Source: a virus
Taxonomy: Duplodnaviria > Heunggongvirae > Uroviricota > Caudoviricetes
Virus record (IMG/VR): IMGVR_UViG_648028025_000010
DNA: 64,000 nucleotides
Reading direction: 5' to 3' (one strand)
A program made the position numbers. Shown here piece after piece: positions 49,601 through 52,600 of this stretch (its first letter is position 1; each line of letters opens with the position of its first letter).

Positions 49601-52600
49601 CTGCATCAGGGTATAAGGGGTTATGGCCACCGGACTACCAAACGGCTGCCAGCCCTCTTTCAGTTTGTGTGTCAGCTTTTCCGCAAGGTCTGACGGCGAC
49701 GCCGCCCTGACAACATCATAATGTTTAATCGACATCGAATTTCTCCCGTGTACAGGAACAGAGTTAAAAAGCCGGAACCGGAATCAAATTACAGGATGGC
49801 CATCTGCCAGTGGCTGGTCGTAAAAAAAAGGCCACGCCATGCGCAGCCGGAAATAAAGGGATAACGATGATAGTTTGAGAAAAACAGAAACAACACTTTT
49901 GCGGCAAAGCATGGTGCCGGGTGCCTCCCGGTGAATTCAGTATCAGCACCTGAATCCGCGATTATCCCATATACCTGGTTGCTGATCGCCCCTCCGCACA
50001 GGGGGATTCACCATGCAGTAGTATTTTTAATAAACAGCAAATAAAAAAATCAAGCATTATGCAGGCTGTTTCTTTTTATCACCGGCCACAGCAATACCAC
50101 AATGCCGCAGACCAGCACCCCATCCGCCAGCACCGACATGATTCTGCTGGTGAAATCCACCATCACCACCAGAAACAGCAGGAGTGCAGCCACAGCCAGG
50201 CGCAGTTTTACCGTCACTGGTGATTCTCCAGACGAAGACCCAGAACACCGGCAATCTCTTCCAGCACCTTGCGCTCTTCCGGCTCAATTTCGCCGTCTGC
50301 CTCCGCAATGGCCACCGCCACATCCAGCACATCTTCCGCTTCACGCGTATCGTGTTTCACATCTTCAATTTCACGCAATGCCGCTCGACGACCAATTTTA
50401 AAGTTCGTATCCAGCTGACCGATAATGGTTGCGCTAATCGCATTAATTTCTGACGTAAACGCGGACAACGCAGGCTGGTTACGCAAGATCTGCTCGATCT
50501 TCGCTTTCTCTGAAGCCTCACATTCACCATCTGCATAGGCCACCAGATAGGCAGCATTAATAACCGCCTGTGCCAGATCACGTTTCTCAAACTTTTTAAT
50601 TTCCACTGCCGCTCGGCGGGCTTTTTTACCAAAAATACCAAACATCGTGACGTTCCTTTGGGTGGGTGAGCCAACGCCCGGGAGCGATCTGCCCACAGAG
50701 AAAGTCACACTGACCACTCCGTAAGCTCACCCCCGAAAGGCTCTGTGGTTGATATGCGCCGGGCGTGGCGCGGATACAAAAAAGGCCGCCAATAGCGACC
50801 TCAGTTACGGGATTATTCTGGGGTTAAACGACTGTTACTCCCCCCAGACAAAATCATCACTTCCTGTTCGATGCGAGCCATAGTGAACCTCGTACTTATC
50901 TCCCATCTTTCTTGCTTCCGTTTCTGCGTCTTCCTCTGTCGCAAAAACCCCAACAAGATGCCAGGGCGAGCTTCTTACCACAGCCCAACCTTTAACCCAT
51001 CCTTTGTTGTCCTTATCTTCCATTAACACTTCAGAAACAAACATATTTATCTCCTTGTGGGTACCCAGAGATATTTTATGATTGCTCCCGGTCAGATCAA
51101 TAAAGTGGCTTCAATTTTGCCTTAATGATCAAATCAGGGTGATTGACGGAATCGTACACCACCTCAATATTTTCATCCGTGGCGTCGATAAGATATTCTT
51201 TTACATAAGGACCTGTTGATTTTCCATGAAATACATCTTCAACAAGTACACTCTCCCCCTGAACAACACGAAAACTAACTTCTGTTTCGAACGGACCAAT
51301 CGTCACCATCAGTTTTTTCACATAGCCTCCTGATAAGCACTCGATTTATTAGTTAATGGTGTAACGCAGATACAAAAAAAGGCCCGCAAAAGCGAGCCAA
51401 GTAAATAAATATGGCGCGTTGTACTGGATTCGAACCAGTGACCGATTGCTTAGAAGGCAATTGCTCTGTCCGACTGAGCTAACAACGCATGATGCTGATA
51501 ATGGACCGCCATCGGGAACTTGAACCCCGCACAGCCAGCTTCGAAGGCTGACGCTCTATCCCGATGAGCTAATGGCGGTATGTGATGGTGGCCCTTGCTG
51601 GATTTGAACCAGCGACCTGGCGATTATGAGTCGCTCGCTCTCACCACTGAGCTAAAGGGCCGGGCGCAGGATAATAACGGTACGTAACTAATTCTGCAAT
51701 ATCATCCGTTCTGACTGACTACATTCTGAACTTCCCTGACCGTCTGCTCAAAACGCCCGCTCTCCAGCTCAACGCCAATTGCACGACGCCCCAGCGCCAT
51801 TGCTGCTTTGACGCTACGGACATAAAAAAGCCAGCCACTGGGGGAGGCTGGCGAAACTCGTAGAGCAAAAGTGTTGTTACACTAACTTCGTCACAGGGTT
51901 ATCCTGCAATACTCAAAATACACAATATTTACAAAACTAATAGTATACAAGGCGATCTTTAAGATTTTGTTATTAATTGTGGTCGCACCTTCCTTTCTGT
52001 GTACTTTCCGTATAGCTCACAGGATTCTGGGTACAAAAAAACCCGCGCATCGGCGGGTTCTTAAATCTTATCAACGGTAGACATACAAAGCCCATCATTG
52101 GGAAAATCTTATCCATATTTTTTGAAAAATGCAAGCATCATGTCGTCATCTTCGGCGAAAACCATTTATCTTGTCACCTTTCTCAATTGTATCTCTGCAT
52201 ATGCTTCTTCCTGCCAGCACTTTGTAACCAGTTTATCAATGACATCTGCATATCCTTTGTACCACTGATAATCCGTCAGGTCTGGTACCAGCTTCTGGAC
52301 ATGAAGCCGCGCCAGTGTGGTTGGTAAACTGCTAAACCGGTTTCCATTGCAACGCCCACAAACCTTATAAACAGGCGTGCCATGAAGCCGGGTTCTTTTT
52401 TCATCCAGGACAATACCTTTACCCTTGCACCCTCTGCATGCTGTGCTGACTTCTCCCTTACCATGACAATGCTGACATAGTTCCTTCACCCACTCTTCCT
52501 TAATAACAGATTCCCCGCTTCTGGAGTGTTTCACCACCTCGCGCAATACATTATGAAATCCAGTACCAGCACAATGCTCACAGCGAGCCTTACTTGCCGC

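Follow-up and report, generated by a model that had tools for sequence, protein, structure and literature searches.

An ileZ-argN-argO tRNA cassette predicted to supply rare-codon decoders in a toxin-free lambda-like prophage of Escherichia coli O26

We analysed a 64,000-nucleotide stretch of DNA from the IMG/VR virus record IMGVR_UViG_648028025_000010 (hereafter the window), in which three tRNA genes lie downstream of the gene for the antiterminator Q of a lambda-like prophage (prophage B). We consider it probable, at about 85%, that these genes constitute an ileZ-argN-argO cassette in a toxin-free O26 prophage that raises the supply of decoders for rare isoleucine (Ile) and arginine (Arg) codons. 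Judged by homology, the trio is the cassette known from the Shiga toxin (Stx) 2 phage 933W, an already described and ordinary configuration. Exactly three tRNA genes were identified in the window by ARAGORN, all of them on the minus strand:

51586-51661, minus strand: ileZ, tRNA-Ile2, anticodon CAU (ARAGORN; Rfam 72.5 bits, E = 6e-14)
51502-51578, minus strand: argN, tRNA-Arg, anticodon UCG, expected to read CGA/CGG (ARAGORN; Rfam 50.1 bits, E = 9e-8)
51412-51488, minus strand: argO, tRNA-Arg, anticodon UCU, reads AGA/AGG (ARAGORN; Rfam 71.7 bits, E = 1e-13)

The Rfam values refer to the tRNA model RF00005 (gathering score 29) with E-values computed for the whole window, and these scores are far beyond chance. 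All three genes encode the 3′ CCA and are separated by spacers of 7 and 13 nucleotides (nt), in the order Ile2(CAU), Arg(UCG), Arg(UCU) that is also found in 933W. The minimum-free-energy fold of argN is a cloverleaf, and the predicted folds of ileZ and argO keep the acceptor stem with the other arms mispaired, as is common when one tRNA sequence is folded alone. A permissive Rfam scan of positions 49700-52300 returned nothing beyond the tRNAs and the STnc100 RNA. The first-pass annotation of this DNA had given the coordinates and anticodons of the trio exactly, with the strand (minus) left unstated, and had proposed a tRNA finder as a check; both ARAGORN and the Rfam covariance model accept all three genes. 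It had also placed the trio between Q and a moron cluster, and the cassette indeed starts 504 nt past the Q stop codon and is followed by accessory genes and a SASA/NanS-p-type esterase gene.

Positions 51365-52060 of the window, about 700 bp reaching from the terminator tR′ to the terminator after argO, are about 95% identical to 933W (AF125520). The 933W record annotates two terminators, the promoter pT, ileZ (AUA), argN, argO (AGA) and a terminator upstream of stx. This alignment, in which stxA2 comes next in 933W, upholds the earlier statement that the arrangement is the one found upstream of stx in Stx phages; three tRNAs adjoining stx2a are also on record (PMC7946995). Identity to the 933W genes amounts to 76/76 positions for ileZ, 71/77 for argN and 75/77 for argO. 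The argN substitutions located in stems keep pairing (U27-G43, G52-C64 and G54-U62), and the remaining ones are located in the D and T loops and the variable region. Compared with K-12 argU, argO is identical at 57 of 77 positions (74%), and the anticodon loop CUUCUAA, including A37, is the same in both. Position 37 adjoins the anticodon and is normally modified. The window copy of argO has A37 as in K-12 argU, and the 933W copy (L002 5047-5123) has G37, a variant whose modification or decoding might differ.

The sequence identifies the CAU tRNA as tRNA-Ile2, the lysidine type that reads AUA, and not as tRNA-Met. Among the K-12 tRNAs, ileZ matches ileY at 70/76 positions (92%) and ileX at 68/76, compared with 54/78 (69%) for metT and 49/78 for the initiator metZ. 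Its acceptor stem (GGCCCUU/AAGGGCC) carries the pairs C4-G69 and C5-G68, whereas metT instead has U4-A69 and A5-U68; the former two pairs are needed by E. coli TilS (PMC1635315). RefSeq already labels the trio on the identical O26 sequence as tRNA-Ile, tRNA-Arg and tRNA-Arg, and the 933W record gives tRNA-Ile, codon AUA, for ileZ. If the gene were an elongator tRNA-Met, the trio would consist of one Met and two Arg tRNAs and would be no set of rare-codon decoders. The ARAGORN output for the gene is tRNA-Met, the homologous gene bears that name in some GenBank records and in PMC7946995, and unmodified tRNA-Ile2 acts like tRNA-Met (PMC1635315), but the closeness to ileY and ileX, the TilS pairs and the RefSeq and 933W labels contradict this assignment, which is almost certainly wrong. 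The tRNA-Met label of ARAGORN and PMC7946995 is the usual annotation artefact, and the practical point is to take the CAU gene for tRNA-Ile2 where ARAGORN and some phage papers mislabel it. In O157:H7, nine tRNA-Ile(CAT) genes have been counted, the maximum among 234 genomes (PMC1635315).

The cassette, scored as present when a match spans 80% or more of the 266-bp trio, occurs in 2,577 of 5,426 complete E. coli genomes (47%), with trio matches in up to 13 places per genome and roughly 7,500 copies altogether. In addition, 379 phage records match the region, and most of them belong to Stx-converting phages. The cassette is thus common and not specific to Stx phages, and a trio that occurs in about half of the complete E. 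coli genomes and is missing from the closest Stx1a relatives of prophage B is no marker of Stx phages.

The genes and signals surrounding the trio are given here in the direction of transcription:

52166-52918, minus strand: Q antiterminator gene, 250 amino acids (aa) (Pfam PF03589 Antiterm, E = 1.9e-52; PHROG 127, E = 7.6e-107)
about 100 nt after Q, minus strand: Q-type-specific interval expected to hold pR′/qut
52035-52060, minus strand: tR′-type intrinsic terminator (GAACCCGCCGATGCGCGGG then T7; direct reading), left boundary of the segment in common with 933W
51853-52034, minus strand: AT-rich spacer (from the sequence)
51824-51852, minus strand: second intrinsic terminator (GCCAGCC...GGCTGGC then T6; direct reading)
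51702-51815, minus strand: 3′ remnant of a DNA methyltransferase gene, a pseudogene (RefSeq annotation of the identical O26 sequence)
51671-51699, minus strand: candidate tRNA promoter pT (TTGCAG, 17-nt spacer, TATTAT, GC-rich CCTGCGCCC discriminator; direct reading)
51371-51398, minus strand: intrinsic terminator after argO (terminator scan; 7-bp stem with 6 GC pairs, then a T run)

The Q protein is 98.8-99.2% identical to Q of Stx2c phages, mEp460, SfV and the Stx1 phage Lys8385Vzw. The tR′-type terminator, the second terminator and pT were not called by a simple scan and are assigned by direct reading together with homology to annotated 933W features. In 933W, the counterpart of the tR′-type terminator is annotated as 'possible rho-independent terminator upstream of the tRNA genes', and the second terminator is homologous to the second one annotated upstream of the tRNAs. 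Candidate pT corresponds, apart from one mismatch, to the homologous 933W feature 'pT; putative tRNA promoter', and ileZ begins 9 nt past its -10 element. The terminator after argO is homologous to the 933W terminator upstream of stx, and homology ends immediately beyond it, which marks the right edge of the shared block. The methylase remnant travels with the cassette and is found in 933W as well, in a gap-free alignment; PA28-type Stx2a phages and PPyecE_EH1910 have full-length methylase genes at the same position. Homology with tRNA-less Stx1 phages stops at 51815, just below the second terminator. A pR′ candidate at about 52106-52134 (TTGCAT, 17-nt spacer, TAAGAT) fits 7/12 consensus positions and is not claimed here. 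On the minus strand, the overall gene order is Q, tR′, tRNAs, cargo, nanS-p, S, R and Rz.

The leader between Q and tR′ (52034-52110, minus strand, 77 nt) is predicted to form two stable hairpins (-26.6 kcal/mol, z = -4.75) and can be likened to the short pR′-tR′ transcripts of lambdoid phages. Its terminator half is common to 933W and Stx1 phages, and its 5′ half is specific to the 250-aa Q type.

From the integrity and identity of the three genes, their homology, position and distribution, we infer how the cassette may be transcribed, modified and of benefit to translation. In the lysogen, the trio would be transcribed as one precursor from its own sigma-70 promoter pT, probably constitutively. 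After induction, Q-modified RNA polymerase that starts at pR′ would also transcribe it, reading past both tR′ and the second terminator. Maturation of the precursor would fall to RNase P and 3′ nucleases of the host, and host TilS would convert the ileZ anticodon CAU to lysidine-AU, which reads AUA. As a result, more tRNAs would be available to decode AUA, AGA/AGG and CGA/CGG, the rarest Ile and Arg codons of E. coli. The beneficiaries would be horizontally acquired genes, namely the early and regulatory genes of the prophage, its lysis genes, perC and nleC, as well as stx in related phages.

We counted the five cognate codons of the trio in the window's own open reading frames (ORFs) and in comparison sets, with the following rates per 1000 codons:

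Prophage B, all listed genes (10,002 codons): five codons 38.5, AGA+AGG 11.0, CGG 13.4, AUA 7.4
Host flank, 15 genes of RM10386 (4,206 codons): five codons 19.7, AGA+AGG 3.3, CGG 4.5, AUA 7.1
Prophage B, late structural genes: five codons 34.0, AGA+AGG 6.7, CGG 15.3, AUA 6.9
Lambda, late genes: five codons 29.2, AGA+AGG 6.4, CGG 14.2, AUA 4.8
Four genes downstream of the trio: five codons 23.5, AGA+AGG 11.7, CGG 0.0, AUA 2.9
933W stx2AB: five codons 68.6, AGA+AGG 19.6, CGG 7.4, AUA 36.8

Relative to the host flank, prophage B uses the five codons about twice as often (Fisher test, p = 2.6e-9), and AGA+AGG is likewise enriched (p = 1.5e-6). The highest five-codon rates were observed for perC and ylcI (106.7), nleC (48.8), the early genes (48.2), the lysis genes (47.5) and the Q/nin genes (43.9), such that the excess is due to AGA/AGG, throughout the regulatory, lysis and effector genes, and to CGG. 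The gene nleC (20345-21331, minus strand), which encodes a type III effector, is located at the tail-fibre end of prophage B, and its rate differs from the 19.7 of the host flank with p = 0.0023; the region from nleC to the tail genes is 98% identical in the Stx1a phage Stx1_1380.

Several observations weigh against a cassette that serves rare-codon decoding. AUA is not enriched in prophage B (7.4 vs 7.1 in the host flank), the four genes downstream of the trio are not enriched (23.5, p = 0.55), with all five codons missing from hyp74, and nanS-p as a whole shows no enrichment (19.5). Phage lambda, in which ARAGORN finds no tRNA gene, has late-gene codon rates close to those of prophage B, and the host baseline consists of 15 genes only. 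Moreover, candidate pT fits just 8/12 consensus positions and was not called by a simple promoter scan, the near-identical O26 genome RM10386 has five trio-matching places, and the closest Stx1a relatives are without the cassette, the slot of Stx1_1380 (LC645433) holding stx1AB and no tRNA. Because a near-identical genome has five such places, the trio copy of the window is redundant. Because the homologous late genes of tRNA-less lambda show nearly the same rate, the late genes do not need the trio. Two candidate explanations were therefore rejected, that the downstream moron cluster needs the tRNAs, as its genes are not enriched, and that the late structural genes need them. The simple story of tRNAs that serve the codons of neighbouring genes fails for this prophage; the tRNAs match the general bias of horizontally acquired genes, and neither their neighbours nor the morphogenesis genes explain their carriage. 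What had been proposed earlier, a trio for rare codons, stands as far as tRNA specificities and the roughly twofold overall enrichment are concerned, and does not extend to AUA or the four downstream genes or withstand the lambda control.

These points leave room for a neutral passenger, that is, a mobile homology block of methylase remnant, pT, tRNAs and terminator that is reshuffled between lambdoid prophages when these recombine at the conserved sequences of tR′ and terminator and is kept as harmless, with no measurable translational benefit. The sharp homology edges at tR′ (52060) and just past the terminator after argO (51365), the recurrent breakpoint at 51815 that is common to three tRNA-less Stx1 phages, and the mosaic identity to 933W inside the trio (ileZ 100%, argN 92%, argO 97%) are consistent with such shuffling, and the redundant copies and the lambda control point the same way. 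In addition, the tail gene U is frameshifted in the window copy, and phage production may already be lost. However, all three tRNA genes are intact, the argN stem substitutions preserve pairing, and the cassette is kept, often in many copies, in 47% of complete E. coli genomes. Intactness and retention suggest purifying selection over decay, whereas the adjacent methylase gene is a remnant, and we consider a mere passenger unlikely. Still less probable, in our view, is that the tRNAs serve as insurance against tRNA-targeting toxins or defence nucleases by replacing cleaved or modified host tRNA-Arg or tRNA-Ile. It is established that tRNAs encoded by phages can counteract anticodon nucleases and that tRNA-Arg is the target of colicin D. 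The neighbouring genes are TciA/TciB-like, and PHROG describes the TciB-like family with 'inhibition of cell division or resistance to colicin'. Furthermore, no host tRNA shares the anticodon of argN: because the arginine isoacceptors of K-12 are ACG, CCG, UCU and CCU, argN adds an anticodon that is absent from the host, and we know of no tRNA-Arg(UCG) in K-12. In contrast, because ileZ and argO have the same anticodon loops as host ileX/ileY and argU, respectively, they give no sign of nuclease-resistance changes in the loop, and the PADLOC defence and counter-defence models gave no match of meaningful score in the adjacent genes. An enlarged supply of decoders for rare Ile and Arg codons is the reading that we prefer.

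Positions 50800-52200 match E. coli O26 chromosomes at 100% identity, and for the junction at 14000-24000 such a perfect match is limited to RM8426-like strains; RM10386 has host genes (marB to ydfJ) in place of the first 19.6 kb of the window. We assign the window to an RM8426-like O26 chromosome. The window comprises two tandem prophages, A and the abutting B:

1 to about 19600: prophage A, a Qin-like remnant with cspF, ydfT/Q (906-1658), ydfU, rem, hokD, relBE, flxA, dicB and an exonuclease gene
about 19700 to beyond 64000: prophage B, with nleC, lambda-like tail and head genes, terminase, lysis genes, nanS-p, cargo, tRNAs, Q and a Qin/Rac-like early region

Prophage A is broken up by ISEsa1, ISCro1 (IS66 family) and IS600, and no tRNA cassette lies downstream of its Q.

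On sequence comparison, prophage B presents itself as a mosaic of Stx-phage modules that lacks stx. The Stx1a phage Stx1_1380 (LC645433) covers 26.4 of its 44.3 kb (60%), with identities of 95-98% from nleC through terminase, 89-94% in the lysis genes, 72% in nanS-p and 93% in the tR′ region. The block at 45298-49748 (endolysin, holin and nanS-p/yjhS) is 98.7% identical at the DNA level to the Stx1a phage Stx1_14040 (LC567819), which has no tRNAs and in which homology resumes at 51815-52059. In its early region, prophage B is similar to non-Stx lambdoid phages and to prophages of the PPompW type (32-44% coverage, 88-90% identity). When the A and B subunits of Stx1 and Stx2 were searched against the window by tblastn, no match was better than E = 0.98. 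Of the features that define a Stx-converting phage, prophage B has the shared lambdoid modules (Q, nanS-p, lysis and morphogenesis) and lacks stxA and stxB. The first-pass annotation had inferred a Stx-phage-like backbone without the toxin from the tRNAs together with NanS-p. LC645433, LC567819, the Q type and the lack of stx support such a backbone, and the 616-aa SASA/NanS-p-type esterase downstream was recovered with Pfam, but the tRNAs are not the reason, since the trio is non-diagnostic. One backbone can house stx1 or other cargo in the same slot, which bears on the gain and loss of toxin genes in O26.

The tail terminator gene U (34412-34803, minus strand) is frameshifted in the window, with residues 1-40 and 28-131 of lambda U in different frames, and the tape-measure gene H is intact (870-aa ORF, 30180-32792). 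In RM10386 the situation is reversed, as U is intact and H carries the frameshift. Either each of the two prophages has a defect in a different tail gene, or the frameshifts are homopolymer sequencing errors.

Because its contents differ between related phages, the slot from tR′ to nanS-p can be regarded, from these comparisons, as a variable cargo site. Across phages it contains stx1, stx2, methylase genes, toxin-antitoxin pairs, TerB/DUF3927 genes and the tRNA cassette, which is full, partial or absent. In prophage B, the trio is followed by these features:

51097-51321, minus strand: hyp74, ORF of about 75 aa with a strong Shine-Dalgarno site
50835-51044, minus strand: hyp69, ORF of about 70 aa with a strong Shine-Dalgarno site
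50782-50802, minus strand: terminator after hyp69 (terminator scan)
50214-50645, minus strand: TerB/TciA-like gene (Pfam TerB, E = 1.7e-16)
50050-50217, minus strand: DUF3927/TciB-like gene (Pfam DUF3927, E = 4.3e-17)
49873-50042, minus strand: STnc100 small RNA, between the DUF3927 gene and nanS-p (Rfam 102 bits, gathering score 47)
47885-49735, minus strand: nanS-p, sialate O-acetylesterase of 616 aa (Pfam SASA, DUF1737, DUF6645)
below 47437, minus strand: holin, endolysin and Rz genes (annotation)

The unit of hyp74 and hyp69 sits exactly at the stx position of Stx phages, with terminators on both sides. Neither protein had a Pfam match above the curated cut-off, a match in NCBIfam or PADLOC, or an informative structural match. 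The pair is kept in late or accessory regions of E. coli, Salmonella and Xenorhabdus prophages and in metagenomic phages, and adjoins phage-borne tRNAs in 3/7 contexts, with Acb2/Tad1-like genes nearby in two. In the Escherichia, Salmonella and Xenorhabdus prophages, its place is between Q and the lysis genes. Further loci of the pair are L017 4724-5222, L015 120-641, L019 4689-5204, L020 1483-1991 and L022 4695-5216. A functional tie to the tRNAs, which are adjacent in E. coli, Salmonella and one Xenorhabdus contig, was considered and is weakened by the four contexts with no tRNA nearby. That hyp74/hyp69 could be an undescribed lysogenic-conversion or counter-defence module, co-expressed with the tRNAs from the late operon, is a doubtful proposition. 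The trio itself carries little weight as a discovery, the cassette having been described with 933W and being routinely annotated, and possibly the new item is the hyp74/hyp69 cargo. The TerB-like and DUF3927 genes belong to PHROG 632 and 1470, in the category 'moron'. Part of the STnc100 RNA (49986-50018) is shared at 100% with an Stx1a phage, where it lies just downstream of stx1B.

Further RNA elements of the window that reached the Rfam gathering score are a sok antitoxin RNA adjoining hokD, a tandem of C4 antisense RNA and isrK that lies upstream of a gene for an ORF6N protein, and two copies of DicF, one per prophage. These matches jointly occupy the following positions:

55691-55865, 56574-56758, 10774-10825 and 62344-62395: Rfam matches to sok, C4/isrK and DicF

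Compared with known systems, 933W and other Stx2a phages, such as VT2-Sakai, Min27 and PA28, carry these three tRNAs in identical order and orientation. 933W differs in its 157-aa Q of another type, with its own pR′/qut upstream, and in stx2AB directly downstream, whereas prophage B has the 250-aa Q, a slot with hyp74, hyp69, TerB and DUF3927, and six differing positions in argN and two in argO. Stx1_1380 and Stx1_14040 share with prophage B the order of Q, cargo, nanS-p and S-R-Rz but carry stx1AB and no tRNAs in the slot and have another Q and early region. The same Q type is found in Stx2c phages (e.g. LC727880) and in Lys8385Vzw, with 94-96% DNA identity through Q and the Q-tR′ interval; the Stx2c phage has two tRNAs only (CAU and UCU, without argN) at 84% identity, Lys8385Vzw has none, and both have stx. 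The K-12 genes ileX/ileY and argU have the same anticodons and identical anticodon loops, ileZ being 89-92% identical to ileX/ileY with the TilS determinants in common, but the phage copies, unlike the K-12 genes, are clustered under one putative promoter within a prophage late region. Finally, a late region of a Salmonella enterica prophage (GCA_004307725.1, L017) contains tRNA-Arg(UCG) and tRNA-Arg(UCU) with the hyp74/hyp69 pair directly after them, between Q and holin, with protein identities of 95% (hyp74) and 91% (hyp69). It differs from prophage B by the absence of a CAU tRNA, a Q of family PF06323, HicAB upstream and the absence of TerB, DUF3927 and nanS-p.

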